Below, piece by piece: positions 18,097 to 36,684 of a stretch of DNA of 64,000 bases. Under the pieces are notes generated by a model. The model saw only the letters and a list, made by a program, of their open reading frames with translations. It was not told the origin of the DNA and ran no database searches. The stretch covers positions 1 through 64,000 of the forward strand of contig JAVQSZ010000002.1 of assembly GCA_033581555.1 (NCBI GenBank), in the 5' to 3' direction. The number at the start of each line of letters is the position of its first letter. Within the stretch, counting starts at the first letter, position 1. A program made the position numbers and the translations under genes. Source of the stretch: Nitrososphaerota archaeon. Its GTDB lineage: Archaea > Thermoproteota > Nitrososphaeria_A > Caldarchaeales > Calditenuaceae.

Positions 18097-18170
18097 CGCC
18101 TGGGCCGGGATTTGAACCCGGGTCACCGGCTCGACAGGCCGGTATACTAACCTGGCTATACTACCCAGGC
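18097..18170 (-). tRNA. tRNA-Asp(GTC)
   Basis: GCCTGGG/CCCAGGC acceptor stem, CCGGC-CT-GTC-GA-GCCGG anticodon arm, GTTCAAATC; no intron. Confidence 0.95.
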
Positions 18171-23942: not shown

Positions 23943-25013
23943 GTGCGGGGGTTGGCGAGCGGACGTGTCAGGGTCGGAATAGTCGGTGCCTCCGGGTACA
24001 CGGGCGGAGAGCTCCTGAGGTTGCTCGCGACCCATCCGAAGGTCGAGGTGACCGTCGCGACCTCGAGGGAGTACGCGGGCCAGCCGATCACGAACGTCCA
24101 CTTTCACCTCAAGGGGTTCCTCGGTAACCTGAAGTTCTCCCAGCTCTCGATCGACCAGCTCTCCGAGAGGTGCGACCTCGTCTTCACCAGCACGCCGAGC
24201 GGCGTCGCGAAGGACTTCGCGCCCGAGCTCCTCGAGGTCGGAGTGAGGGTGATCGACCTGAGCCCCGACTTCAGGCTGAAGGACCCGAGCCAGTACGAGA
24301 GGTGGTACGAGTTCGCGCACCCCTCACCGGACCTCCTCGAGAGGGCGGTCTACGGCCTGCCGGAGCTCCACAGGGAGGAGCTGAGGGGCGCTAGGCTGGT
24401 CGCGTGCCCTGGCTGCAACGCAACGGCTGCGCTCCTCTCCCTGATCCCCGCGGTCGAGCAGAAACTGATCGACTTAGACCACGTCGTCGTCGACGTCAAG
24501 GTGGGGAGCAGCGAGGCCGGGATGAGGCCGACGCTCGGGACGCACCACCCTGAGAGGGCGAACGTCATGAGGCCCTACGAGGCCACAGGTCACAGGCACG
24601 TCGCGGAGGTCGAGCAGGAGCTCTCGGCGCTCTCGGGGAAGACGGTGAGGGTCGCGCTGGTCCCCCACGCGGTAGGAGCCGTAAGGGGAGCCCTCGCAAC
24701 GTCGCACGTCTGGCTGGTCGACAGGTCAACGGACGAGCTCGCGGTCTGGAGGGCCTTCGCGAGGAGGTACGGCCATGAGCCCTTCGTCAGGATAGTGAGG
24801 GGAGGTAGGTACCCGGACCCGAAGTACGTGATCGGCTCGAACTTCGCGGACGTCGGAATGGCCGTCGAGCAGAGGATCGGGAGGGCCGCGCTCTTCGCAG
24901 CGATCGACAACCTGATGAAGGGCGCCGCTGGTCAGGCGGTCCAGTGCATGAACTTGGTCTTCGGGTTCGACGAGAGGGAGGGCCTATACGCACCGCCGTT
25001 GAGGCCGGCATGA
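23943..25013 (+). CDS. argC: N-acetyl-gamma-glutamyl-phosphate / [LysW]-phosphate reductase (ArgC/LysY)
   Basis: GASGYTGGELLR, IDLSPDFRL, YGLPELHR, PGCNAT, IDNLMKGAAGQA. Confidence 0.93.
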   Translation: MRGLASGRVRVGIVGASGYTGGELLRLLATHPKVEVTVATSREYAGQPITNVHFHLKGFLGNLKFSQLSIDQLSERCDLVFTSTPSGVAKDFAPELLEVGVRVIDLSPDFRLKDPSQYERWYEFAHPSPDLLERAVYGLPELHREELRGARLVACPGCNATAALLSLIPAVEQKLIDLDHVVVDVKVGSSEAGMRPTLGTHHPERANVMRPYEATGHRHVAEVEQELSALSGKTVRVALVPHAVGAVRGALATSHVWLVDRSTDELAVWRAFARRYGHEPFVRIVRGGRYPDPKYVIGSNFADVGMAVEQRIGRAALFAAIDNLMKGAAGQAVQCMNLVFGFDEREGLYAPPLRPA

Positions 25014-25078
25014 GCTCAAGTCTCTCTGCGCTCGGTCGAGGTCCCCTAGCGCGACAGCGCCCTCAGGATCACGCGAAC

Positions 25079-26059
25079 TCAGAGCAGCCTGACGTTCTGC
25101 CTCTCGTCGAGGGAGATGGCCCTGTAACCCAGCCTCCTGAGGTGCGAGGCGAAGACCGAGGAGCTCCCGTACATCGTGACCACTACCCTCGGCGAGACCG
25201 ACTCGACGTACTCGACGAGGCCCGCGAAGTCGGCGTGGCTGCTGAGGGCGAAGGAGGCGTCGAAGCCCGCGAAGGACCTAGTAAGTGCCCAGCCTGTGGC
25301 GACCGACCAAGAGGCCCTAAGGCCTCCTAAGCTCTTGACGCGCTCCGAGACGTAGACGAGCTCTCCGTCCCTTAGGACCTCGGAGGCCTCCTCGGTGCCC
25401 TCGACGACGAACTCCATCCAAGGGTAGGCCCTCTTGTAGACCGAAGCGACCGACCCGACGTCCCTGCTGACGAGGACGGGCACCCTCATGGACTGGTTCA
25501 CGAGCGCGATCACCTCCTGAGCCTTCCCAGCCGCGTAGACGCTGAAGGCCGGAACCCTGCCGTCCCTCAAGGTCTCCTTGATCCACCGGACGACCTTCGC
25601 GTAGACGAGCTCCCTCTCCTCGAACCTATAGACCGGGGAGCCGTAGGTCGACTCGATGACCAGGACGTCCGCCTCCGTCGACCAGGCGGGGTCGTGGAGT
25701 ATCGAGGCCTGCGTGTTGAGGTCTCCGGTGTAGAGGAGCTTCCTTCCGTCCAGGTCGAGCTCGAAGACCGCGGAGCCCAGCATGTGCCCCGAGGGCTGGA
25801 CCGAGACCCTTACGCCCCCTAGGTCCGCCGAACGGCCGAAGTCCAGCCTGACGTGGTTCCTTACCTTGACGCCCCTAGCGCCGAAGATCAGCCTCGTCTC
25901 CTCGGTCATGACCGCGGACCGGGATCCACGGCCGGAGAGGTGGTCCATGTGGGCGTGGGAGACGCACGCGAAGGCCATCGGCTCATCCGAGTCGAGCGCG
26001 ACGGTCCTGCCGTCGTCGAGCGTGAGGACTGCGCCGTTCCCCCTCCTCGCGATCTCCAT
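25079..26059 (-). CDS. MBL-fold beta-CASP nuclease
   Basis: SHAHMDH, GHMLGS, YTGD, ESTYG, GKAQE, SSHADF. Confidence 0.88.
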   Translation of the reverse strand: MEIARRGNGAVLTLDDGRTVALDSDEPMAFACVSHAHMDHLSGRGSRSAVMTEETRLIFGARGVKVRNHVRLDFGRSADLGGVRVSVQPSGHMLGSAVFELDLDGRKLLYTGDLNTQASILHDPAWSTEADVLVIESTYGSPVYRFEERELVYAKVVRWIKETLRDGRVPAFSVYAAGKAQEVIALVNQSMRVPVLVSRDVGSVASVYKRAYPWMEFVVEGTEEASEVLRDGELVYVSERVKSLGGLRASWSVATGWALTRSFAGFDASFALSSHADFAGLVEYVESVSPRVVVTMYGSSSVFASHLRRLGYRAISLDERQNVRLL

Positions 26060-26064
26060 CCTCC

Positions 26065-26940
26065 TCAGACCTCGACGGTCCTAACCACTCCAGGACCTAA
26101 CTCCGCGACGAAGCCATCGGTCCTCGACGAGAACTCGGCCCTGACTCCCCTCCGGGCCGCGACGTCCCTCGCGGTGCTCGAGACGAACCCCGAGAGGCCC
26201 TCGGCCTTCACGAGGACCGGCTCGAAGTAGGCCCTCTTGCCCTCCTCCTTGACCGTTACGTACCCGACCGCGAAGAGGAACGGGCCCGAAGACTGGCCGA
26301 CGAACATCGCCAGCGCGTTCAGCGACCCGAGGGCGTAGGGCGCCGCGTCCGTGACCGCGCCCCTCAATCCTTCGAGCAGCTCCCCGACCGGCCTGCCCTC
26401 GAGCCTGCTCAGGACGAACTTCAGGAGTACGTGGGAGTCGGTGTAGACGCCCGGGTCACCGAGCCCGATCAGCATCGCGAGCTCGGCCTTCCTCACGCCG
26501 CCGTTGTGGGAGAAGAGGGCCTCGTAGAGCTCGGGACCATTCTGCCCAAGGAGGACCACTTCGCCTGAGAACGGGTGGCCGGCATTGACGCCCCGCGGCT
26601 CGGACCCGGTCCGCCTGCTGTGGAGGATCAATGCGAACTCGTCCCCCCTCTTGAGGAGCGCCTTCAGCTCCCCCGCAGCCTCCTCGAGGGCCCTCAGGTT
26701 GGCATGACAGGCTTCCTCGCCGGCCAGCCGCGGTGACGCGTCGAACCGCGCCCTCATCACCTCCCACGAGCCCTTCACCCTCCTCGCCAGCGCGAATCCG
26801 TAGCCGTGGCAATGCCTGCCGTCGCCGACCAGACGTTCGAGGTACGGGTCGTTGGCCGACGCCTCGACGGCCGAGTCGATCAGCTCGCCGGCAAGGGCCC
26901 TCGCTCCCTCGAGGAACCTCAGCGCCACCATCCTGCACAA
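26065..26940 (-). CDS. Class II glutamine amidotransferase-like Ntn hydrolase
   Basis: N-terminal (M)CRM nucleophile, H.HGYG, LHSR, SHNG, TDS. Confidence 0.75.
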   Translation of the reverse strand: MCRMVALRFLEGARALAGELIDSAVEASANDPYLERLVGDGRHCHGYGFALARRVKGSWEVMRARFDASPRLAGEEACHANLRALEEAAGELKALLKRGDEFALILHSRRTGSEPRGVNAGHPFSGEVVLLGQNGPELYEALFSHNGGVRKAELAMLIGLGDPGVYTDSHVLLKFVLSRLEGRPVGELLEGLRGAVTDAAPYALGSLNALAMFVGQSSGPFLFAVGYVTVKEEGKRAYFEPVLVKAEGLSGFVSSTARDVAARRGVRAEFSSRTDGFVAELGPGVVRTVEV

Positions 26941-27047
26941 GGCTCCGACTCCATAGGCTGACCGGCCGAATTAAGCGTATTCCCACCGGACGGCCCGGCC
27001 CCCTCGGTCCCCGAACCGATAATACGTGACCCCGCTTCCGTCACGCG

Positions 27048-27254
27048 ATGCTCAGGAGGCTCATCGCGGCGCTCTGGCGGCGGAGGACGATCAGCCCCTC
27101 GGCGGAGGTACGCGACGCGGTCCTGAAGGGCCTTGAGGACCTCAGGGGCACCGACCCCAGGGTCAGCGAGCTGAGGAGGCTGAGGGAGCGGCTCGAGTCG
27201 CTGGCTAAGCACGCTTCCGGTCACTCGGGTCGGGGCTCGGGCGACAAAGACTAA
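27048..27254 (+). CDS. Hypothetical protein
   Basis: ATG ~25 nt after GATAATA; host-like AGG/GAG codon usage. Confidence 0.5.
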   Translation: MLRRLIAALWRRRTISPSAEVRDAVLKGLEDLRGTDPRVSELRRLRERLESLAKHASGHSGRGSGDKD

Positions 27255-27291
27255 TTACGACACTATTAGCGCAATATTAGGTGGTTCGGGG

Positions 27292-27498
27292 ATGCCAAAG
27301 CACGTCCTCGTCACCCTGACCGACGAGCAGTACCGTTGCCTCTCTTACCTCAAGGGCAAGATGGGGAGCAGCGACGCGGAGGTCCTCAGGAACGTATTCA
27401 TCGCGTGGGTCTGGGAGAAGATGGGAGGGGCCGCGCTCGGCGAATGCTGGACCGACGTCAAGAAGCTTGTCCCTGAGGAGAAGAAGGCCGAGGGCTGA
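27292..27498 (+). CDS. Small RHH/CopG-like DNA-binding protein
   Basis: KHVLVTLTDEQY..L..L..KMG.S.AEVLRN beta-alpha-alpha pattern; AT-rich upstream region with repeated TATTAG. Confidence 0.65.
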   Translation: MPKHVLVTLTDEQYRCLSYLKGKMGSSDAEVLRNVFIAWVWEKMGGAALGECWTDVKKLVPEEKKAEG

Positions 27499-28927
27499 CC
27501 GGTTCCGGGAGCTCGGAGCCGAGCTCCAGGTTCCTCCAGATCAGGTACTCCGGCGGCGAGATGGCCCTAGCCAGCCTCTCCCCGAGCTTCGACACGCCTA
27601 GTGGCCTACGTATGGGGAAGCCTCCGACCGCCCTCCTGAGGGCCTTTAAGACCTTTCTCTTCTCCTTGGGCCTGAGGGACCTATACCACTCGACGAAGAG
27701 CCTCCGGTCTCTGATGACGAAATCGTCGGCCCCCAAGTCCTTCAGGAGCTCACGCGCGGCCTTCACGTCCTCCCTCGGCTCTTTACCGACCTCGATCCTC
27801 CTCATCCCAGCCCTCTCGAAGAACGGGTTATACCTCGCCATCACCGCCAGGGCCTCGACGTAGGCCTTCCCGACCAGCGGCATCGTCCTCCTCACCAGCT
27901 CCGCTCCGAGACCTATCCCCCTGAACTTCGGGTGAACCACGACCCTCGAGATCCTGGTGAAGTGCTCATTTAGCCACTTGACGTACCTTTTCCTCCCGAG
28001 CTCCTTCTTGAGCTCCTTGAGGAACGGGAAGGCCGCTTCCCGCGCCCTCAGGTGAGGATAGACCGAGGTGTAGACGATCACGCCCGCCAGCTCATCGCCG
28101 ATCCTCGCGGTAAAGATCGCCTCGATGAACGGCGGCTTCTTGCCCCTGTAGTGGAACTCCGCGAGCTCCTTGTAGTCCCACAGCGTCCCCCTGGAGACCT
28201 CGAGGCTCCGCATCAGGGAGCACGTCTTCGGTCGGGGGAGGTCGTAATGGACCTCGGCCGCAGACCCAATCCTCTTCCTCACCAGCACGTCCGGTCCCAG
28301 GTCCTCGATCAGGTCGTCGTGGGCCGTCGCTAGCACCAGCGTCGTCCCGTTCGCACGGGCCCTCTTTTGGACCAGGTACGCGATGACCTTCGCGGTCGTC
28401 CGGTCGAGGTTCGAGCAGAACTCGTCCGCCACAAGGGTCCTCGGCCTCCTGTCGAGGGCCTTCGCGAGCAGATACCGGAACTTCTGGCCGTCGCTGAGCT
28501 CCTTATACCTCCTCAGGAAGACGAAGGCCTCGCCTAGCCCGACCGACGAGAGCAACTCGATAGCCTCCTTCGTGTCCCTCCCGACTCCCTCGATCACGAG
28601 CTCGCCCGGCTTCGCCTCGATCTCCCTGAGGTCTACGACCGGCCGGAAGCCCTTCACGTCCCTGAGCCTCATCGCAAGGTCCTTCAGGATGAGGGACTTG
28701 CCCCCGCCGCTCTCGCCGGTCACGAAGACGACGTCCCCGGGGTCCACGTCGATGACCAGGTCCCTGTAGATCACCCGGCGCCGACCGTCGAGCCCGATCC
28801 CGAAGGCGTCGTGGACGTCCAGCGTCCGCCTCGTCCTCGGAGCGGAAGCCTCGAAGGACTTCGAGAGCCTGAACGCCCTCCTCGGCCTCTGCTCCAGCTC
28901 TATCGGGTCCCTTACTCGGAACCTCAT
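27458..28927 (-). CDS. ABC-type ATPase fused to a GNAT acetyltransferase (COG2401-like)
   Basis: GESGGGKS, LSDGQKFR, ADEFCSNLDR, ATAHDDL, then FHYR and ISRVVVHPKFRGIGLG acetyl-CoA motif, NPFFERAGM; ATG overlaps the terminase stop (ATGA). Confidence 0.88.
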   Translation of the reverse strand: MRFRVRDPIELEQRPRRAFRLSKSFEASAPRTRRTLDVHDAFGIGLDGRRRVIYRDLVIDVDPGDVVFVTGESGGGKSLILKDLAMRLRDVKGFRPVVDLREIEAKPGELVIEGVGRDTKEAIELLSSVGLGEAFVFLRRYKELSDGQKFRYLLAKALDRRPRTLVADEFCSNLDRTTAKVIAYLVQKRARANGTTLVLATAHDDLIEDLGPDVLVRKRIGSAAEVHYDLPRPKTCSLMRSLEVSRGTLWDYKELAEFHYRGKKPPFIEAIFTARIGDELAGVIVYTSVYPHLRAREAAFPFLKELKKELGRKRYVKWLNEHFTRISRVVVHPKFRGIGLGAELVRRTMPLVGKAYVEALAVMARYNPFFERAGMRRIEVGKEPREDVKAARELLKDLGADDFVIRDRRLFVEWYRSLRPKEKRKVLKALRRAVGGFPIRRPLGVSKLGERLARAISPPEYLIWRNLELGSELPEPVSPRPSSPQGQAS

Positions 28928-30237
28928 GCCTCCAGGAGCGAAGCTGTTGACCCGGAGCCCGAGACCGTCGCGCCCCACGCTGCCAGCGCCAACGCCCTGG
29001 CGAGATCGTCGTGGGTCCCGGGGTCGTGGTGGAACCTGACCCTCCCTCCCTTCGTCCTCTCGTGCTTGACGGCCCTCAGCGAGTCGATCAGCCTGCTGTC
29101 GAGGTACATCCTCAGCCTCCCCGACTCCATCAGGACCCTGATCAGCAGCATCGTCCTCTCGACCTCCGCGGGACCCACTCCGATCACCTCGACCCCGTAG
29201 GACTCCAGCTGCTCCCTTATCAGGAGGCCGGCGCCGATCTCCTCCAGCGCAACCCTGAAACCCACCTCCCTCTGAAGCCTCGCCACTCTCGAGGCCGAGT
29301 AGGTGTAGCTGTCGCTCATCCAGGACTCGACGTGGACGACCCTAAGGGCGTCGCCCCTCCGCTCGACGACGACCAGCGCGTTCGGGTCGGACCTTCCTCC
29401 CCAGTCGAAGCCCGCTGTCAGGTCAGCGTCGCCGCTCGGCTGAGGGTCGTAGTCGTCGACGCACTTCCTGATCAGGTCCGCTGAGAAGAAAGACGCAGCG
29501 TCCTCGACGAACTCCGCGAGGTACTCCCTCCTGAACGCCTCATCGCCGATCAACCCCCTCTGCTCCTCCACGAACCCACTCGGGACAAGCGGACAGACGC
29601 TCACGGGCCACCTCTTCACGCTCCAGTCGCCGCTGGTGAAACACCTGTAGAAGACGTGGTTCTTGTCCCAGGGAGTGCTGATCATCAGGAAGCTCCCGCC
29701 GGTCGTCGCGACCTGGGGCATCAGGGCCTGCGTGATCACCTCCTCCGGGACGAAGGCAGCCTCGTCGACGACCACGAGGTCCGCGGTGAATCCCCTGATC
29801 GTGTGGCCGAACCTCCCTGAGGGCAGCGCGACGACCCTGCTGCCGTTGACGAACCTGACCGAAGTCCTGTCGCGGCCCGCGACCAATGAATGCCCTGCCC
29901 TTGAGGACTTGAGGAGCTCCTCGACCCTCTCGAGGAATAGCGCGCTCTGCCTCAGGGTCGGCGCGACCACCAGGCCCCTCGACCCGGACCTCGTGAGGCA
30001 GAGGTGGAGGACCTTCGCGGCCGCGGTCGTCGACTTTCCCACTTGCCTCGCGGCGCAGACGCAGATTCTGGGACTCGGATCAGTCAGGAGGTCGACTTGG
30101 TAGGGGAACGGCCTCCACGAGAGGAACTCTACTGCGAACTCGACCGGGTCCTCGGGGACGCGGGCTAGACCCGAATCCCTCAGCCTCCTAAGGGCCTCGA
30201 CCCTCCTCTTCAGCTCCCTCGGGACCGCAGGGCTCAA
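28924..30237 (-). CDS. Terminase large subunit (ATPase + RNase H-fold nuclease)
   Basis: PYQ adenine motif, ARQVGKST Walker A, VAPTLRQS, IRG..ADLVVVDEAAF Walker B, ISTP coupling motif, FRREYLAEF, GFDWGG..D and HDDL nuclease acids; TTG start overlaps the upstream stop. Confidence 0.9.
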   Translation of the reverse strand: MSPAVPRELKRRVEALRRLRDSGLARVPEDPVEFAVEFLSWRPFPYQVDLLTDPSPRICVCAARQVGKSTTAAAKVLHLCLTRSGSRGLVVAPTLRQSALFLERVEELLKSSRAGHSLVAGRDRTSVRFVNGSRVVALPSGRFGHTIRGFTADLVVVDEAAFVPEEVITQALMPQVATTGGSFLMISTPWDKNHVFYRCFTSGDWSVKRWPVSVCPLVPSGFVEEQRGLIGDEAFRREYLAEFVEDAASFFSADLIRKCVDDYDPQPSGDADLTAGFDWGGRSDPNALVVVERRGDALRVVHVESWMSDSYTYSASRVARLQREVGFRVALEEIGAGLLIREQLESYGVEVIGVGPAEVERTMLLIRVLMESGRLRMYLDSRLIDSLRAVKHERTKGGRVRFHHDPGTHDDLARALALAAWGATVSGSGSTASLLEA

Positions 30238-30548
30238 CCCGACCCGCCCTCCATCCGCTCGACCAGGGCCCGTATCTCCTCCAGCTCCCTCTCCCTCTTC
30301 AGTCTGCCCAACAGCGCCAGCCCCCTCAGCGCGATACCTACACACGCTTGAGAGGCCCTGATGTCGCCCTTCGACTTCGCGGCCTGGGAGAGCGAGCAGG
30401 CCTCCTGGACCAGCGCCCAGACCTCGTCCTCGATCCTCCTCCAGTCAGAAGGCGCCTGCTTCTCCTGCGGCCTCCTCTCGATCGCCTTCGCGAGCCTCGC
30501 GAGCCTCCTTTCGACCCTCGTGACCGTCCGGATCAGGGAGCCCCTCAA
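30234..30548 (-). CDS. All-helical protein, candidate terminase small subunit
   Basis: 104 aa, basic and helical, translationally coupled directly upstream of TerL (positional inference). Confidence 0.5.
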   Translation of the reverse strand: MRGSLIRTVTRVERRLARLAKAIERRPQEKQAPSDWRRIEDEVWALVQEACSLSQAAKSKGDIRASQACVGIALRGLALLGRLKRERELEEIRALVERMEGGSG

Positions 30549-30889
30549 AGCCCCTCACCGTAGTACCTCACGTTGTCGAGGTAGTTCCTCACGCCCTTCT
30601 TCGGGACGCTGAACCTCTCCCTCTCGACGCTCTCGATGAGTTGAACAGGGATGTACGTGATGTCACTGGTCTCGGGCTTCCTCTCCACCACTAGTCGCAA
30701 GTACTCGATCCTCTCGCCCCTCACGAACCCTCCGAACGCGCCAATCGAGTAGATCGGGCTGTCTATGACTTCCGGGTTCTTCACGGTGTTCGGAACGTCC
30801 CTCCAGGTGCAGGCGTCCCACCACTTCACCACCACAAGTTCCCCCTCCTTCACTCCTTTCAAGAGCTCCCTCACCCTCCTATTGGCCAC
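30545..30889 (-). CDS. Virus-type small beta-barrel protein (WxDA...S.G...IP motif, possibly Sm-like)
   Basis: LVVVKWWDA...SIG...TYIPVQLIESVE pattern; first gene of the terminase operon. Confidence 0.55.
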   Translation of the reverse strand: MANRRVRELLKGVKEGELVVVKWWDACTWRDVPNTVKNPEVIDSPIYSIGAFGGFVRGERIEYLRLVVERKPETSDITYIPVQLIESVERERFSVPKKGVRNYLDNVRYYGEGL

Positions 30890-31012
30890 GTCAATTCAGA
30901 ACATGGCCTGGCTTACTGGTTACCGGTTTTTTGAATTTTGGCGAAGTTCTGTTTTGAAAACAGTCTTTCAACATAGCGAGGGCTAATCCGAGGCTCGATC
31001 ACTCGAAGACCG
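30890..31012. promoter_or_regulatory. Divergent AT-rich promoter with a palindromic operator
   Basis: Perfect inverted repeat CTGTTTT-G-AAAACAG at 30949-30963 and T-tracts between two divergent operons. Confidence 0.6.
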
Positions 31013-31339
31013 ATGTACGGCTCAATACGGGAGGTAAGGGTCAAGGTAGGACTGCAGGAGGACGACTCGTCCCTCGACCAGCTGCTGGCGGTCTTCCTCG
31101 AGGAGGCGGAGGCCCTGATCGACGCGACCCTCGAGTCCCACGGGCACCAGGTCCCGCTCGCGGACCCACCGCTGAGGATCAGGAAGCTCTCCAGCACCGT
31201 CGCCGCGCTCCTCTTTCTGGCGTGGAGGTCGACGAGGAAGGAGGAGGCCGCTTCACTATTGAGGGCGGTGAGGGAGGAGCTCGCGGCCCTCGGGGAGGAC
31301 ATCAGGGCGAGGGGCACGGTGCTCCTGACGGGTGAGTGA
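31013..31339 (+). CDS. Head-tail adaptor-like protein (HK97 gp6/SPP1 gp15-like)
   Basis: Y.S..EV+..+G....DSSLDQLL...LEEAEALID helical-bundle pattern, ~108 aa. Confidence 0.65.
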   Translation: MYGSIREVRVKVGLQEDDSSLDQLLAVFLEEAEALIDATLESHGHQVPLADPPLRIRKLSSTVAALLFLAWRSTRKEEAASLLRAVREELAALGEDIRARGTVLLTGE

Positions 31340-31568
31340 GGTGAGGAGGGAGGCGAGGCTGACGGTGAGGAGGAACCAGAGGGGCGTTACGGTCAGCTTC
31401 GGCGTCGAGGACTGGCTCGGTGCCCTAGCGATCTTCCTAGCCGTGGCCTTCGTGGCTCTCCTCTGGGCAGGCAGGGCGATAGAGGCGACGCTGGTCGGGA
31501 GCTTCGGCGGCGCCCTCTCGCTGAGCGAGATGGTCAGGAGGGCCGGGAGGAGGTCGGGTAAGAGGTGA
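31332..31568 (+). CDS. Small two-TM membrane protein
   Basis: Two hydrophobic segments and a basic C-terminus; overlaps its neighbours. Confidence 0.6.
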   Translation: MSEVRREARLTVRRNQRGVTVSFGVEDWLGALAIFLAVAFVALLWAGRAIEATLVGSFGGALSLSEMVRRAGRRSGKR

Positions 31569-31771
31569 GGTGCAGGTCCACTTGCGCCTCAGTCGAGGGC
31601 GCGTCGAGGAGGGTGAGGTATGGGCTCGGGTACGCCTGGTGCGCGGTCTGCGAGGTCGCGTTACCCTCGAGGTGCTGCGAGGACAGAGGAGGCTCGCTGA
31701 GGTGCCCCTGCTGCAACAGCTCCGTCAGGCTCTCGCCGAGGACCAAGAGGTGGTACGCGGTTGGAGCATGA
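31565..31771 (+). CDS. Small Cys-rich zinc-finger protein
   Basis: CxxxC...RY..G...CxxCE...CPCC...R..PR; coupled by a GTGA overlap. Confidence 0.65.
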   Translation: MRCRSTCASVEGASRRVRYGLGYAWCAVCEVALPSRCCEDRGGSLRCPCCNSSVRLSPRTKRWYAVGA

Positions 31772-32051
31772 GGTCCAGCTGAGCCTCTCCTCGGCCCTCT
31801 TTGGCGCGCTCTACGGAGCTGTCTTCGCCGGCGCGGGCTACCTCAAGTCGAGGAGGCGGGAGGAGTTCTCGCCGGAGAAGTTCCTCAGGACGGTCGCCCT
31901 CGGGGCGCTGGTCGGCCTGACCTCGGCGCACCTTGGACTCGAGCTCGACGACGTCCGCCTAGACCAGATGCTCCTCACCGGAGGTACCGTGACGCTGCTT
32001 AACGACCTGCTGAGCGCCATGCTCGCTTCCCGGAGGGGCTTGAGGAGATGA
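31761..32051 (+). CDS. Small membrane protein, holin-like
   Basis: TM - GYLK...EEFSPEKFLRT - TM pattern with a basic C-tail. Confidence 0.55.
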   Translation: MEHEVQLSLSSALFGALYGAVFAGAGYLKSRRREEFSPEKFLRTVALGALVGLTSAHLGLELDDVRLDQMLLTGGTVTLLNDLLSAMLASRRGLRR

Positions 32052-32647
32052 GGGTCACGCTGCTGGCCGGGCTCGCGCTCGCCTCCCTCGCCCTGATCGG
32101 AGGGGGGATCGCTCTCTCCTCGCCCGAGTCGGAGCTTGTAAAGAGGACGGTCGTGAGGGAGTTCCACGTCCCGCTCCCCGGCGACTTCCCGGTCCACTTC
32201 GATGAGTACGAGATTAGGGTGAGGTGGAGGACCGCCGAGTCGCTGGCCCTCTTGGCAGCTGGTTCGGTCGCCCTCGCGGCTGCTGCGGGACTTGCGTACT
32301 CCGAGAGGTCCACCGTCTTCAGAAGGGTGGTCGCGGCGCTCGGCACCGCCTACGGCATCGGGGTCGCGATGCTGGTGGCCTCGAGGAGAGACTTCAGGAC
32401 CGCGGCACCGATCCTCCTGCCTCTGGGAGTCGCGGTGATGGCGCTCTCGCTGACGCTGATGAGGCTGCTTGGGAGTAGGCCCGAGGAGGATCTCAACCGA
32501 CGCGAGCCCTCACGCGGACAGAGACGACCGTCGATTTCCTCCCCGACTCGAGGACGTCGAGGACCCTCAGCTCGTAGGGGAAGAGCTCCAGAGGCCGGCC
32601 GCCGACTTCCCTCGGGCCCTCGGAGAGGACCAGCTCTGCGAACCTGA
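32048..32647 (+). CDS. Multi-pass membrane protein (3' ~50 codons overlap an opposite-strand gene)
   Basis: Four hydrophobic helices in the first ~140 aa; ATGA coupling. Confidence 0.55.
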   Translation: MRVTLLAGLALASLALIGGGIALSSPESELVKRTVVREFHVPLPGDFPVHFDEYEIRVRWRTAESLALLAAGSVALAAAAGLAYSERSTVFRRVVAALGTAYGIGVAMLVASRRDFRTAAPILLPLGVAVMALSLTLMRLLGSRPEEDLNRREPSRGQRRPSISSPTRGRRGPSARRGRAPEAGRRLPSGPRRGPALRT

Positions 32648-32915
32648 CTGCAGCGCTGACCGCCTCCGATGCCTGAAGCACTGCGTCCGGCCTCGAGCTC
32701 TCCACGACGACCTCGTACTCCTGGTCGGCGCCGATCCCGCTCCCGCCGACGGTTGTCCTCTCGAGGCGCACCTCCCTCAGCAAGACGAAGGCCCTCGGGT
32801 AGATGGGCAGCGTGACCTCCCTCACAACGGCCGCGATCAATCCCTCCTCCCTCAGCCTCTCAACGAGCCCGAGCAGCGCGCCCTCGACCTCCTTGACCAT
32901 CAGGCCTCGGCTCAT
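32493..32915 (-). CDS. Tail terminator/completion-like protein (lambda gpU/SPP1 gp17-like)
   Basis: 140 aa, helix - YP.AFV strand - YEVVVES strand - helix - terminal strand layout; viral context. Confidence 0.45.
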   Translation of the reverse strand: MSRGLMVKEVEGALLGLVERLREEGLIAAVVREVTLPIYPRAFVLLREVRLERTTVGGSGIGADQEYEVVVESSRPDAVLQASEAVSAAVRFAELVLSEGPREVGGRPLELFPYELRVLDVLESGRKSTVVSVRVRARVG

Positions 32916-33100
32916 CTCCGCTCCGCCCTGATCAGGAACCCTTCCCTCGAGATCAGGTCCCTGATCGCCATCCGGACTGCCTCGGCGACGCTAGCGTAGA
33001 CCCCCGAGTCGACCAGCTCCTCCAGCGCGTCGAGGTACGCCTCAGGCAGCCTCACTGTCAGGGGCCTCAGGCCGCTCTTGGTCCTGAGCTGGACCGCCAA
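32912..33100 (-). CDS. Ribbon-helix-helix (CopG/Arc) regulator
   Basis: LTVRLPEAYLDALEELVDSGVYASVAEAVRMAIRDLI. Confidence 0.88.
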   Translation of the reverse strand: MAVQLRTKSGLRPLTVRLPEAYLDALEELVDSGVYASVAEAVRMAIRDLISREGFLIRAERR

Positions 33101-33223
33101 CCCGGTGAGTCCGCGGGCCCATCCGATTTAAGCGGAGAGAGCAGGACCGGTGCGAAGGTGGAAGTGCGCGCGGAGCTTGAACCGGAATACGCTATTATCC
33201 CACAATCGGAATCCAGTGCCGAG

Positions 33224-34147
33224 ATGAGGGGGCACTTCCTCGAGGTCCTGGACCTCTCGAGGGACGAGTTCGTCGAGGCCGTCAGGACCGCTGTGCGATT
33301 CAAGACGGAAGGTTACCCGAGCTCGGGGCTGAAGGGGAAGACGATCGCGCTGATCTTCGAGAAGCCCTCGACAAGGACGCGGGTCTCTTTCACCTCCGCG
33401 ATCAGCAGGCTCGGTGGGAGGTTCGACTACATCTCGTCCGCGGAGCTGCAGCTCGCTAGGGGCGAACCGGTCAGCGACGTGGGGAGGGTCCTCTCGAGGT
33501 ACGTCGACGGACTCGTCTGCAGGGTCTACAGCCACTCGACGCTGGAGGAGCTGGCCGCGAACTCAAGGGTCCCGGTGATCAACGCCCTTTCGGACAAGCA
33601 CCACCCCTGCCAGGCCCTAGCCGACTTGATGACGGTCTTCGAGCTGAAGAAGACCTTCAAGGGGGTCAAGGTGGCCTTCGTCGGGGACGGGAACAACGTC
33701 GCCACCTCCCTGATGCAGGCCTGCGCCCTGACCGGCGTCGACTTCGCGATCGCCTCACCTGAGGGCTACTGGGTCCCTGAAGAGGAGAGGAGGAAGGCCC
33801 TCGAGTCCGCAAGGGCCTCTGGCGCGGAGCTCACATTCACCGAGGACCCGGTCGAGGCCGTGAGGGACGCGGACTTCGTCTACACCGACGTCTTCGTCTC
33901 GATGGGTTTCGAGGCAGAGAGGGAGCGGAGGCTGAAGGCCTTCCTGCCTCGCTACAGGGTCACGAGGGAGCTGATGTCCAAGGCCAAACCCGGAGCCAAG
34001 TTCATGCACTGCATGCCTGTGAAGAGGGGCGAGGAGGTTGAGGCCGAGGTGGCCGACGGTCCGAGCTCCGTGATGATCGACCAAGCCGAGAACAGGATGC
34101 ACACGGAGGCTGCGCTCCTGTACCTAATCTACGGCAGGTGGAAATGA
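33224..34147 (+). CDS. argF: Ornithine carbamoyltransferase
   Basis: FEKPSTRTR, HPCQALAD, GDGNNV, YTDVFVSMG, MHCMP, QAENR. Confidence 0.95.
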   Translation: MRGHFLEVLDLSRDEFVEAVRTAVRFKTEGYPSSGLKGKTIALIFEKPSTRTRVSFTSAISRLGGRFDYISSAELQLARGEPVSDVGRVLSRYVDGLVCRVYSHSTLEELAANSRVPVINALSDKHHPCQALADLMTVFELKKTFKGVKVAFVGDGNNVATSLMQACALTGVDFAIASPEGYWVPEEERRKALESARASGAELTFTEDPVEAVRDADFVYTDVFVSMGFEAERERRLKAFLPRYRVTRELMSKAKPGAKFMHCMPVKRGEEVEAEVADGPSSVMIDQAENRMHTEAALLYLIYGRWK

Positions 34148-34208
34148 GTTTCAGAGGTGACGGAGAAAGCTTATAACCGTTAGTTGATGTTGTAACATAA
34201 GGGCTGCG

Positions 34209-34502
34209 TTGCTGGACCCCTCGACGCAGCAGTACGTCGTCCACGGCATCACTTTGATGGTCGGGATGTTGATTGGGTACGGGTTGGCACAGGCCCTGAG
34301 GGGACTTGTGTTAGTGACCTTGGTCATCGCCGTCACGGTGCTGCTCGGCCTCGCCCTCGCTGACGTGCTGCCCCTCCAGTCTCTCCTCGAGTCCTTGAGG
34401 CCGATAATGGATTCGGTGAGGAGCCTGCTCGGACCCCTTCTGAGCTACCCAATGTTCTTCGTCGGGCTCCTGATCGGAATGGCCTTCGGGCTGGCTAAGT
34501 GA
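34209..34502 (+). CDS. Small membrane protein (about 3 TM)
   Basis: Highly hydrophobic 97-aa ORF downstream of TTATAA. Confidence 0.6.
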   Translation: MLDPSTQQYVVHGITLMVGMLIGYGLAQALRGLVLVTLVIAVTVLLGLALADVLPLQSLLESLRPIMDSVRSLLGPLLSYPMFFVGLLIGMAFGLAK

Positions 34503-34551
34503 TCGCAGCTTTGGGGTTAGATTATTAGGTGAGTCATCGCGGTAACCGGGG

Positions 34552-36684
34552 ATGCGGAGCGGAGCGGGTAGGCTGCTGGAGAGGCTCTCCGATCCCCTGA
34601 GGTGGCTCGACAGGAGGCTTGGCGGGAGGCTGACCCCGCTCGAGGCCGCTATACTGCTGCTCGCCGTCTCGGCGGCCTTCATGGTGAGGTCCCTCCCCGC
34701 GAGGTGGGGCCCGGTCCTCAGCGAGTTCGACCCCTGGTGGCACTACACGGTCGCGAGGATGATCATCGAGAGGGGCTGGGCCGGGTTCTGGGAGTTCAGG
34801 GGGATGGTCGACACGCTCTCGTGGCACCCGACTGGCCTCAACGTGGGGACCACCTTCTACCCCGGAGTGGCCTTCACCATGGCCTTCGTCTACCTGACCC
34901 TCTCGTCGATGGGCGTATCGGTCGACCCCGTCGCGCTCGCAGCAGCGCTCCCAGTCTTCTACGGCATGGTCACCGTCGTAGCCGTTTACTTCTTCGCGAG
35001 GTACGTCGTCGGGAGGGGCGCTGCCCTCGCCTCCGCGCTCCTCCTAGCGCTCAGCGCGGCCCACATCTCGAGGACCCACTACGGCTGGTTCGACGACGAG
35101 GCCCTCTCGATACCGCTGATGCACGCGGCCTTCATCTTCTACCTGATAGCCATCAACGAGAAGAGGACACTGAGGGGCTCCTTGTTCTTCGGCCTCATCG
35201 CGGGGCTACTGATCGGGTACGTCACGGCCACCTGGGGAGCTCACAGGCTAGTGATCGCGCTGATACCGCTCTACACGGCTGTGCTTGCACTGTTGGGCAG
35301 GATGGACAGGAGGATCCTAGTGGCCTATCTCGCGACCTTCGCGACCTACGCCTCGATAGCCGTCAACGTCCCCAAGCTCGGCGTAGGCTACCTCACCGAG
35401 ATCAGCATGGCTGCGGGCTGGCTGGTCATACCATATCTGGTGGCCGCGTGGCTGGCGAAGGAGCGCCTCGACGAAGTGAGGTCCCTCCTCGTGACGAGGG
35501 GCATCGTGCTGGCCATCGGGGTAGTGGGATTGGCATCCCTCGCGCTCGGAGCCCTCGACATACCCGGCCTGAAGTTCTTCTCAGTGTTGCTCCCGCAGCT
35601 GAGGGGCACCCTCCCGATCGTGCAGTCGGTGGCCGAGAACCAGCTCGCTACTTGGGGCTCGCTCTTCCTCGACTTCGGCCCGACGCTCCTCCTCGCGCCC
35701 TTCGCGCTCTACCTCCTGGTGAAGAGGGGGACCAACGAGTCGGTCTTCCTGACGGTCTACGCGGTCCTGGCCTTTTACTTCGCCTCCTCGATGGTGAGGC
35801 TCGCCCTCCCGACCTCGCCGGTCGTGGCCGTTCTCGCCGGGACGACGACCTCCCACGTCCTCGAGTCGACCTTCAAGGCCCTAGCGGCTCCCGCCCCGAG
35901 GGCCAGGAGAAGGGCGCCGTTCGATAGCAGGGTTGCGATCGCTGTCCCGCTGGCCGTCCTGCTAGCGCTGACGCTGTACTACGTCCCCGCCAAAGCCGGG
36001 GGACTCTCCCAGTACTCCAGCATCGACTACGCCGACGTCCCGCCGACCGTGCTGGCCAGCAGCCTGCCCGTCAAGCAACCCCTCCACGATTGGCCGAGGG
36101 CCCTCGAGTGGATGAGGAACAACCTACCTCAGGACGCGGTCGTGGCGTCCTGGTGGGACTATGGCAACTGGATCTCGAGGCTCGGCAACAGGACCAGCAT
36201 CATCGACAACACGACCATCGACAGCATCAGGATCGCGAAGACAGCCTACGCCTTCCTCTCGCCTCCGAACGCGAGCAAGAGGATCTTCAAGGAGCTTGGT
36301 GCGACACACGTACTGATCTTCGTGACCTTCGCACCCTTTGTCGGAGGCCAGCAGGGAGGCCAGCTCTTATTTTACGGAGACGAAAGCAAATGGTATTGGA
36401 TGCTGAAGATAGCGAATCAAGAGGCGGAGAACATCGGTTATCAGAGGATAGATGAGGCGAGCCTTTTAGGCCCTGAGGGATCCCCGACCACAGCTACCGA
36501 GAAGTTCTGGAGGGAGACGACGCTAGGGCTGATGATACCCTATAAGCCAGTGAGGCTCGGGGCGCAGACCTACTACACGTACAGTCCGCCCCAGATAGAA
36601 GGGTTCAGACTGGTCTACTCATCAAGTCCGCCGTATAGCCCCAACACCTACGCCTACGTTTACATCTACGAGATCGTGGACTGA
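34552..36684 (+). CDS. aglB: Oligosaccharyltransferase AglB (STT3)
   Basis: EFDPWWHY, WFDDE, SVAEN, WWDYG, DNTT; many TM helices. Confidence 0.95.
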   Translation: MRSGAGRLLERLSDPLRWLDRRLGGRLTPLEAAILLLAVSAAFMVRSLPARWGPVLSEFDPWWHYTVARMIIERGWAGFWEFRGMVDTLSWHPTGLNVGTTFYPGVAFTMAFVYLTLSSMGVSVDPVALAAALPVFYGMVTVVAVYFFARYVVGRGAALASALLLALSAAHISRTHYGWFDDEALSIPLMHAAFIFYLIAINEKRTLRGSLFFGLIAGLLIGYVTATWGAHRLVIALIPLYTAVLALLGRMDRRILVAYLATFATYASIAVNVPKLGVGYLTEISMAAGWLVIPYLVAAWLAKERLDEVRSLLVTRGIVLAIGVVGLASLALGALDIPGLKFFSVLLPQLRGTLPIVQSVAENQLATWGSLFLDFGPTLLLAPFALYLLVKRGTNESVFLTVYAVLAFYFASSMVRLALPTSPVVAVLAGTTTSHVLESTFKALAAPAPRARRRAPFDSRVAIAVPLAVLLALTLYYVPAKAGGLSQYSSIDYADVPPTVLASSLPVKQPLHDWPRALEWMRNNLPQDAVVASWWDYGNWISRLGNRTSIIDNTTIDSIRIAKTAYAFLSPPNASKRIFKELGATHVLIFVTFAPFVGGQQGGQLLFYGDESKWYWMLKIANQEAENIGYQRIDEASLLGPEGSPTTATEKFWRETTLGLMIPYKPVRLGAQTYYTYSPPQIEGFRLVYSSSPPYSPNTYAYVYIYEIVD

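Follow-up and report, generated by a model that had tools for sequence, protein, structure and literature searches.

Positions 27048–33100 of a 64,000-nucleotide (nt) stretch of archaeal DNA carry a tailed-virus DNA-packaging locus that is very probably one of three pieces of a domesticated, selected and split head–tail gene set. The stretch, hereafter the window, comprises positions 1 to 64,000 of the forward strand of contig JAVQSZ010000002.1 from a Nitrososphaerota archaeon of the family Calditenuaceae, order Caldarchaeales (assembly GCA_033581555.1; 1.43 Mb, 72 contigs, 90.6% complete). The genome carrying the window is designated G000 and the packaging locus, in window coordinates, locus A; locus B lies on contig C8 and locus C at the junction of contigs C6 and C1 of the same assembly. 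Judged by the families to which the genes are assigned, the structural and packaging parts list of a tailed particle would be complete over the three loci. The set lacks an integration, excision or replication module and does not propagate as a unit, and it is inherited vertically under purifying selection, as expected of a gene transfer agent (GTA). The chances are about even that it is a domesticated split tailed-virus (Caudoviricetes-type) set that includes GTA-like DNA packaging.

The packaging operon of locus A

A first-pass annotation of the window had described a cluster of about 6 kb at 27048–33100, and all 13 of its open reading frames (ORFs) are found at the coordinates given here. 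The core of the cluster is a leftward operon with the order WxDA protein, helical protein, TerL and ABC-GNAT (protein lengths in amino acids, aa):

30545..30889, minus strand: WxDA protein, 114 aa, first gene of the packaging operon
30234..30548, minus strand: helical protein, 104 aa, candidate small terminase, directly upstream of TerL and coupled to it
28924..30237, minus strand: TerL, large terminase subunit, 437 aa from the TTG at 30237 (longest ORF to 30345)
27458..28927, minus strand: ABC-GNAT, fusion of an ABC-type ATPase and a GNAT acyltransferase, closing the operon, 489 aa when read from the ATG at 28927

On inspection of the sequence all three junctions are 4-nt start/stop overlaps (TTGA, TTGA and ATGA), which bears out the translational coupling proposed in the first-pass annotation and places the likely starts of TerL and ABC-GNAT at 30237 and 28927, respectively. 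The conserved block of TerL begins at the same TTG, and the longest ORF of ABC-GNAT extends over 27458–28978, with the ATG at 28927 as the probable start.

TerL matches Terminase_6N (1e-13) and Terminase_6C (1.2e-6), both above the Pfam cut-offs, as well as phrog_2 (2.6e-44), and aligns with solved domains of Thermus phage terminases, 4zni for the ATPase (1.8e-14) and 5m1f for the nuclease (1.6e-6). In an alignment of 12 sequences Q83, R100, G103, R184-G185, D194-E195, T224-P225, D314 and D447 are invariant and K104 is conserved in at least 90%, so that the Walker A, arginine-finger, Walker B/Glu, C-motif and nuclease Asp positions are constant; R184-G185 aligns to the residue mutated in 4znj. 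TerL is thus predicted to have the Terminase_6-type architecture, an N-terminal ASCE ATPase followed by a C-terminal RNase H-like nuclease, and the earlier claim that all ATPase and nuclease motifs are retained agrees with the domains, structures and residues alike. The ratio of nonsynonymous to synonymous substitution rates (dN/dS) between congeners is 0.12–0.15.

The ABC-GNAT protein matches ABC_tran (2.2e-9) and Acetyltransf_1 (3.7e-5), both above the Pfam cut-offs, and phrog_11143 (5.3e-31). Seven sequences show no variation in Walker A, signature, Walker B or GNAT motif A, and its dN/dS is 0.17–0.29. Its relatives in cultured phages, which carry the annotations 'ABC transporter' or 'ABC-type ATPase fused to a predicted acyltransferase domain', share 32–38% identity with it over 69–90% of its length (best E 9e-51); in architecture, motifs and homology the archaeal protein therefore belongs with the phage ABC-ATPase/GNAT fusions. 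The one function found proposed in print for such proteins is DNA-base acyl modification, predicted for a GNAT domain joined to an ABC ATPase (Iyer et al. 2021, PMC7824862). A known defence system was considered and rejected, as PADLOC returned weak mad3/mad8 matches to the ABC domain only.

The two small proteins at the head of the operon are less readily named. In the WxDA protein W23, D25 and A26 are invariant in 10 sequences and dN/dS is 0.06–0.08. Its structure model (pLDDT 68) finds small beta-barrels only, with a best Z of 7.2 to WYL domains that lies within the noise band, and its closest Atlas clusters are viral hypothetical proteins. The protein has no family match, no BFVD match at E<=0.001 and no solved structure by profile search, and none of 28 proteins retrieved in a homolog search bears an informative name; it is modelled as a small beta-barrel of unassigned role. 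The 104-aa helical protein (dN/dS 0.15–0.27) matches coiled coils only among solved-structure profiles. Its homolog in the sister genus g4 is 169 aa long, with about 55 additional N-terminal residues that look helix-turn-helix-like by eye and have no family match.

The rightward operon and the tail terminator

The rest of the right half of locus A consists of a rightward operon at 31013–32647, whose genes overlap by 4–11 nt, and a convergent gene pair:

31013..31339, plus strand: adaptor-like protein, 108 aa, Mu gp36 type head–tail adaptor
31332..31568, plus strand: mem78, 78 aa, one hydrophobic segment; homolog in genus g2; dN/dS 0.08–0.23
31565..31771, plus strand: Zn68, 68-aa Cys-rich protein, zinc-ribbon candidate, Cys 26/29 and 47/49/50
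31761..32051, plus strand: 96-aa protein earlier labelled 'holin-like'; homolog in g2; dN/dS 0.18–0.21
32048..32647, plus strand: mem199, 199-aa membrane protein, four hydrophobic segments; dN/dS 0.20–0.46
32493..32915, minus strand: candidate tail terminator or tail completion protein, 140 aa; dN/dS 0.12–0.29
32912..33100, minus strand: RHH62, 62-aa ribbon-helix-helix (RHH) regulator; RHH_1 1.2e-6, above cut-off

Two of these products point to a head and a tail. The adaptor-like protein of the window reaches Mu_Gp36 at 8.7e-4 with 19.9 bits, below the Pfam cut-off of 24.7, and its ortholog in genome G026 scores 26.9 bits, above it; the matches to the adaptor family phrog_195 (0.033) and to the solved-structure profile 5ydn, 'Gene product J' (E=0.095), are weak, and dN/dS is 0.14–0.18. 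The 140-aa protein has no sequence-family match in Pfam or PHROG and no solved structure by profile. Its Atlas model superposes with TM 0.72–0.81 on the Tail_completion_gp17, Phage_tail_terminator and gpU clusters (PF11367, PF23840, PF23961, PF06141), and its orthologs in G013 and G007 stand directly upstream of the tail tube gene. By modelled fold and by position next to the tube gene it is therefore probably a tail terminator or completion protein. Its gene is coupled by a 4-nt overlap to that of RHH62 (dN/dS 0.08–0.11), and the RHH and tail-terminator-like pair proposed in the first-pass annotation stands on the RHH_1 match and the modelled fold.

Of the rightward operon as first annotated, the gene order, the membrane proteins and the Cys pairs stand, and the adaptor is a candidate by way of its ortholog. 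The holin label is unconfirmed, as the 96-aa protein has no segment above the hydropathy threshold. Zn68 has no Pfam family above cut-off (dN/dS 0.05–0.22), and homologs of mem199 in genera g2 and g6 adjoin tail genes.

The remaining head and tail genes lie at two other loci

Pfam and PHROG scans find no capsid, portal, tail tube, tape measure or integrase in locus A, as the first-pass annotation had held. Its description of the system as capsid-less does not extend beyond this locus: the search of the genome for capsid, portal and tail genes that it had proposed led to loci B and C.

contig C8, about 73.8–81.2 kb, locus B, one strand: capsid-like protein, scaffold-like protein, 346-aa protein (o346) and portal
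contig C8, locus B, diverging strand: RHH protein, tail tube, 108-aa ORF, HK97-gp10/Neck1-like neck protein and tape measure
end of contig C6 (L040, 9044–9415) and start of C1 (L039, 1–1281), locus C: three distal-tail genes of 652, 355 and 140 aa

Locus B was found by Pfam scans of the whole assembly, which showed a sub-threshold portal next to a tail tube gene on contig C8, and by annotation around the matches. It is flanked by ribosomal protein genes on one side and by LigT and a P-type ATPase on the other. The tube matches PF18906 (4e-19), the neck protein PF04883 and phrog_5 (3e-13), and the tape measure PHROGs to 1e-10; the portal matches PF04860 below the cut-off and phrog_12, and an ortholog matches phrog_9232 (1.5e-11). 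A scan of G000 with PF05065 gave no match and the capsid gene was located through its neighbours. The locus B protein itself has weak PHROG matches (1e-3). Three of its orthologs match PHROG major-head families, the profile of the family retrieves 26 proteins with E from 1e-106 to 1e-42, and seven of nine rescanned homologs pass Phage_capsid (PF05065) and/or Phage_capsid_4 (PF25209) in Pfam. Profile search found no solved structure for the capsid protein or for o346. The latter may, at a guess from its position and its invariant His and Ser residues, be a prohead protease; none of its 14 homologs carries a functional name. Left of the capsid gene stand two small ORFs (90 and 93 aa; L027, 5301–5839) with dN/dS of 0.5–2.3 between congeners, which are probably non-coding.

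Locus C was found with the tail genes of relatives as queries. It spans the gap between contigs C6 and C1, which are neighbours, as the contiguous locus of a congener (L042) shows. An amino-acid permease/AsnC pair flanks it on one side and other host genes on the other, and it is complete in two congeners. Its distal-tail genes match phrog_1887 and, in an ortholog, phrog_9983. No integrase or replication family was found within or next to any of the three loci, and host genes separate them; together they comprise roughly 17 kb of coding sequence. The split GTA suggested in the first-pass annotation thus holds in its anatomy, with capsid, portal, tube and tape measure on C8 and the distal tail at C6/C1.

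Vertical inheritance and purifying selection

The three loci occupy fixed sites in the genus. Locus A is syntenic beside argF in 6/6 congeners, and its ORFs are intact in all seven genomes of the genus; so, apart from a deletion in G001, are those of loci B and C in each genome where these were recovered. Locus B is syntenic in 5/6 congeners, four of which share the adjoining LigT and P-type ATPase genes, and the contig of the fifth ends before that flank. Both flanks of locus C are assembled in G000, G002 and G004 and are the same in all three; G001 and G006 carry the locus too, and it was not recovered from G005 (66% complete).

Maximum-likelihood trees of concatenated host flanks, of locus A and of locus B have one topology (UFBoot 97–100). 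For the closest pair, G000 and G002, synonymous divergence (dS) is 0.21–0.59 in locus A, 0.13–0.38 in locus B and 0.24–0.53 in the flanking genes. The dN/dS of the locus A genes from RHH2 (27292–27498) to RHH62 is 0.00–0.46 and that of s68a, the ORF at the left edge of the locus, 0.55; locus B genes range over 0.03–0.50 and host neighbours over 0.05–0.36. The values are mostly below 0.3 and host-like over three independent species pairs: 0.08–0.10 for the capsid, 0.06–0.13 for the portal and 0.16–0.20 for the tube, against 0.07–0.13 for argF and 0.06–0.09 for AglB. Two-genome comparisons in three other genera of the order likewise give genus-specific fixed positions, with a TerL dN/dS of 0.07–0.12. 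GC content, GC at third codon positions and codon usage of all element gene sets lie within the genome's own distribution (percentile ranks 1–71), as the first-pass annotation had judged from GC and codon usage. The genes are thus intact, host-like in composition, vertically inherited at a fixed site and under purifying selection; therefore the system is domesticated and is neither a fresh nor a decaying provirus, in line with the earlier proposal. Synteny, trees and dN/dS had been named there as the test of this proposal.

Within the segment 23943–36684, the pairwise dS of G006 and G004 is 1.53 in argC, 0.23 in the metallo-beta-lactamase (MBL) exonuclease, 0.07 in RHH2 and 1.42 in Zn68. Such swings between neighbouring genes, from 0.07 to 1.5, suggest mosaic recombination between lineages.

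Neither an excised form nor an empty site appeared in a search of four metagenome runs, where no joint has a side longer than 25 letters and all were treated as spurious. An assembly chimera, raised as a concern with the first-pass annotation, is excluded by a single contig of 65,870 nt from a metagenome run of another study, which spans 24000–36000 with 74 differences and one gap; the arrangement of locus A is therefore not an assembly artefact.

Compact relatives and a recurrent packaging module

Related genes are frequent in the order, with TerL in 28 and a portal in 19 of 41 genomes searched, and a full-length ABC-GNAT (best E<=1e-90) in 40 of 76. Another genus of the same family has a single locus for the tail genes, adaptor, WxDA, TerL and ABC-GNAT, with the portal-to-capsid genes about 21 kb away, and a third genus packs TerL, tail genes, portal and ABC-GNAT into about 14 kb. 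A FastTree phylogeny of 100 TerLs groups the seven sequences of the genus as monophyletic (support 1.0). In this sample of 100 the sister clade (support 0.999) consists of chromosomal loci only, with no IMG/VR contig, which speaks against the earlier concern that TerL might nest among active viruses. At five loci of the sister clade a single compact cluster of about 11 kb holds the whole element and ends with ABC-GNAT beside host genes (DUF763, H+-pyrophosphatase, MscS). As the nearest relatives are compact, the three-way split in the genus is a secondary dispersal.

Some relatives vary in gene structure and linkage. Among the nearest compact relatives the capsid domain (Phage_capsid_4, 5.4e-10) forms the C-terminal third of a 661-aa protein at L070, 6183–8168 (minus strand), and similar ORFs occur at L073 and L075; the 661-aa protein recalls the protease–capsid fusions described for thaumarchaeal elements in the available text of PMC6563490. 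G024 has two full-length ABC-GNAT copies (C1:386254–387579 and C1:581595–582923), one of them 14.6 kb from TerL, and in G026 ABC-GNAT is on a different contig from TerL.

An alignment search with ABC-GNAT gave 301 relatives in public genomes, of which 80 were kept, and at least 199 in IMG/VR, of which 80 were likewise kept. They belong to Caldarchaeales (Calditenuis, Terraquivivens, Geocrenenecus, Wolframiiraptor, Benthortus), many Bathyarchaeia, Nitrosocaldus and other Nitrososphaeria. Among loci with enough upstream sequence, counted as lower bounds with our own hidden Markov models, TerL is directly upstream of ABC-GNAT on the same strand in at least 34 of 64 genome loci and at least 45 of 79 IMG/VR contigs, and WxDA is also upstream in at least 31 and at least 40 of these, respectively. 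The module of WxDA, small helical protein, TerL and ABC-GNAT thus recurs across Caldarchaeales, Bathyarchaeia and Nitrososphaeria. Searches of the published literature (supplements apart) gave no account of a split over three loci like this one, nor of a module that joins TerL and ABC-GNAT.

Regulatory candidates and setting of locus A

The remaining features of locus A are the following:

27048..27254, plus strand: s68a, 68-aa ORF, possible small regulator, membership in the system uncertain
27292..27498, plus strand: RHH2, 68-aa protein, candidate regulator, most conserved gene of locus A
30890..31012, no strand: AT-rich divergent intergenic region, 123 bp, with inverted repeats on inspection

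The s68a product matches PSK_trans_fac in Pfam below the cut-off (E=0.01), and among the congeners the ORF is present in G002, G004 and G006 only (dN/dS 0.29–0.55). RHH2 is identical (100%) in G002 and 86–90% identical in five other congeners, with dN/dS 0.00–0.12, and adjoins ABC-GNAT even in congeners with a different left flank. Family scans (Pfam, PHROG and others) find no match for it, so that the second RHH-like gene of the first-pass annotation retains its RHH fold as a label. The intergenic region at 30890–31012 probably holds the promoters of both the leftward and the rightward operon. It also holds a GTTTTGAAAAC palindrome, and behind 30926 a single T is inserted in the contig from another study. 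The 3' ends of two convergent pairs overlap, the four-segment membrane protein and the tail terminator by 155 nt (32493–32647) and ABC-GNAT and RHH2 by 41 nt (27458–27498).

No tRNA gene lies at locus A, the closest being at 18097 and 60423, and no att-like flanking repeat was found there, both as first annotated. Of the flanking genes, the 291-aa neighbour annotated as GATase-like is present and has no match in family scans. A gene at 25079–26059 (minus strand) encodes a metallo-beta-lactamase-fold exonuclease like the ligase-associated DNA damage response exonuclease (TIGR04122, 1.6e-43, below the curated cut-off).

Comparison with known systems

The closest parallel is with the GTAs of the RcGTA type in Alphaproteobacteria (Rhodobacter capsulatus, Caulobacter), which likewise have a virus-derived head–tail and packaging set without integration or replication genes, vertical inheritance, purifying selection, host-like composition and more than one locus. 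The RcGTA small terminase gp1 is without a DNA-binding domain at its N terminus, according to the available text of PMC6854486. The helical protein of the genus, which is shorter by some 55 N-terminal residues than its g4 homolog, offers a suggestive parallel if it is indeed a small terminase and if the extension is a DNA-binding one. In contrast to RcGTA, the archaeal set would be of independent origin, has no close sequence relationship to it and comprises three comparable loci instead of one main cluster with accessory loci; it has an ABC-ATPase/GNAT protein coupled to TerL, RHH proteins in place of GafA/CtrA as likely regulators, and particles that are predicted from the genes.

Within the same order and neighbouring lineages, CalSub-Pro, Nvie-Pro1 and NCAV2-Pro1 (Caldiarchaeum and Thaumarchaeota; PMC6563490, PMC5797428) likewise have Caudoviricetes morphogenesis genes and lack both att sites and replication genes, as far as the available text describes them. 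GTA-like domestication has been raised for a related single-locus element of the order (Krupovic et al. 2019, PMC6563490) and for a thaumarchaeal element (Abby et al. 2018, PMC5797428). In the available text of these papers the proviruses are single contiguous loci in single genomes, discussed from gene content, whereas the set described here is dispersed over three loci and its conservation, co-divergence and dN/dS were measured over seven genomes and three further genera. The TerL of a genus with a similar contiguous tail–TerL cluster is only 27–28% identical to that of the present genus.

PBSX of Bacillus subtilis is one contiguous prophage-like region whose particles kill sensitive cells. 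It shares with the present set, as proposed from its genes, a tailed particle that is encoded at a fixed chromosomal site, does not propagate and takes up DNA of the host. The ABC-GNAT protein has the two-domain architecture of the phage ABC-ATPase/acyltransferase proteins (SSU5-like phage-plasmids, T5-like Pseudomonas phages and Rhizobium phages); in the archaeal loci it is a single fused ORF directly behind TerL with a stop/start overlap, a linkage that is not described in the available text of PMC7824862.

A model of particle formation and its alternatives

On induction, loci A, B and C would be expressed together and the products of locus B would assemble procapsids. TerL, aided by the small helical protein, which in the genus is without the N-terminal extension of its sister-genus homolog, would cut DNA and pump it into them. 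The adaptor and terminator of locus A would link the heads to tails made from loci B and C, and the membrane proteins might aid release. ABC-GNAT, coupled to TerL, probably acts on the packaged DNA, for example by acyl modification of a base. As the genes are scattered and integration and replication genes are missing, such particles could not propagate the element and would carry host DNA.

Several observations weigh against this model. The congener G001, whose assembly has three contigs and is 91% complete, has deleted the genes from capsid through neck together with the start of the tape measure; portal, capsid and tube were found nowhere in this genome. It keeps loci A and C intact, and constraint on locus A is not relaxed on the G001 branch (nonsynonymous/synonymous changes 56/137, vs 41/109 and 39/86 in its sisters), so that either the head genes were lost recently or locus A has a role that needs no head. 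The tape-measure remnant of G001 (L038, 11608–12597) is an open 329-aa ORF with an ATG start and a dN/dS of 0.22–0.23 versus its sisters. No regulator common to the three loci was found, RHH62, RHHb and RHH2 being without BLAST similarity, and no common intergenic promoter motif was seen by eye (no motif finder was run). The structure model of the capsid protein has a pLDDT of 33 and a pTM of 0.22, leaving the HK97 fold to be assigned from sequence families, and the 104-aa protein is a candidate small terminase by virtue of its position. That the element would be unable to package itself follows from the scattering of its loci and not from capsid size, and expression, particles and packaged DNA are all predicted from the genes; no RNA run is listed as carrying locus A, a result that is uninformative about its expression.

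The G001 deletion bears most directly on the idea that locus A has a capsid-free role, with TerL and ABC-GNAT in DNA processing or modification, in a defence-like function or in DNA export with the membrane proteins, the last of which the first-pass annotation had also entertained. A constrained locus A retained after the loss of the head genes speaks for such a role, as do the unlinking of ABC-GNAT from TerL in some genera (G026, G024) and the conservation of the membrane proteins over two genera. Against this, the adaptor and the tail terminator of locus A make sense only with a head and a tail, other genera hold the same genes inside one head–tail cluster, the weak PADLOC matches concern the ABC-ATPase only, and the deletion may be recent, given that the tape-measure remnant is still open; a capsid-free role is therefore unlikely, and a terminase repurposed with the membrane proteins finds little support. 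The same deletion, with the absence of integrase, att site and replication genes, would suit inert and decaying remnants of an old provirus, and such regions of Caldarchaeales have been called prophage regions in the available text of PMC10547907. This is very hard to reconcile with ORFs intact in seven genomes at locus A and, save in G001, wherever B and C were recovered, with dN/dS of 0.0–0.5, mostly below 0.3 and host-like, over three species pairs and three further genera, and with invariant catalytic motifs in TerL and ABC-GNAT.

Many IMG/VR contigs with the TerL and ABC-GNAT pair are listed as viral, which would be expected if active temperate viruses integrated repeatedly at the same sites. 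This is extremely improbable: a contiguous genome, an integrase, att sites and a replication/lysogeny module, as an active temperate Caudoviricetes provirus has them, are all absent, the three loci are separated by host genes, the element trees match the host tree, dS is at the level of the flanks, composition is host-like, and no excised or empty-site form appears in the metagenome runs. There is a modest chance that particles do form and are selected for something other than gene transfer, such as PBSX-like killing, DNA release or biofilm formation, or nutrition or repair as reported for the Caulobacter GTAs. The comparative evidence speaks for selection on the gene set and not for what the particles do, and Abby et al. 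(2018, PMC5797428), in the available text, list killer particles beside GTAs for the related thaumarchaeal element. This reading and gene transfer are not told apart by anything found here. Intact nuclease and ATPase in a complete packaging module imply that DNA would be packaged, and PBSX particles likewise package DNA. A domesticated, split head–tail set with GTA-like packaging is the preferred explanation.

Significance

A far-reaching reading of this system, which we regard as improbable, makes it the first genetically defined archaeal GTA, derived from a compact ancestor common to Caldarchaeales, Bathyarchaeia and Nitrososphaeria, with ABC-GNAT acylating DNA during packaging. Were this so, transferred host DNA would reach the recipient already protected or tagged, and the module of WxDA, small terminase, TerL and ABC-GNAT would be a new packaging machine with a DNA-modifying subunit, widespread in Thermoproteota.

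To our knowledge, GTAs are genetically defined in bacteria only, and the one reported archaeal agent, that of Methanococcus voltae, has no assigned genes. The three loci provide a concrete and testable candidate for an archaeal GTA in an uncultured hot-spring genus. They lend measured support to the idea of GTA-like domestication, which in the available text of PMC6563490 is so far speculation, and their dispersal takes domestication beyond one frozen prophage. The coupling of a terminase to ABC-GNAT in many Thermoproteota loci and IMG/VR contigs points to an unstudied step in the DNA packaging of archaeal viruses, and the 'prophage regions' annotated in such genomes may be systems that the host maintains.

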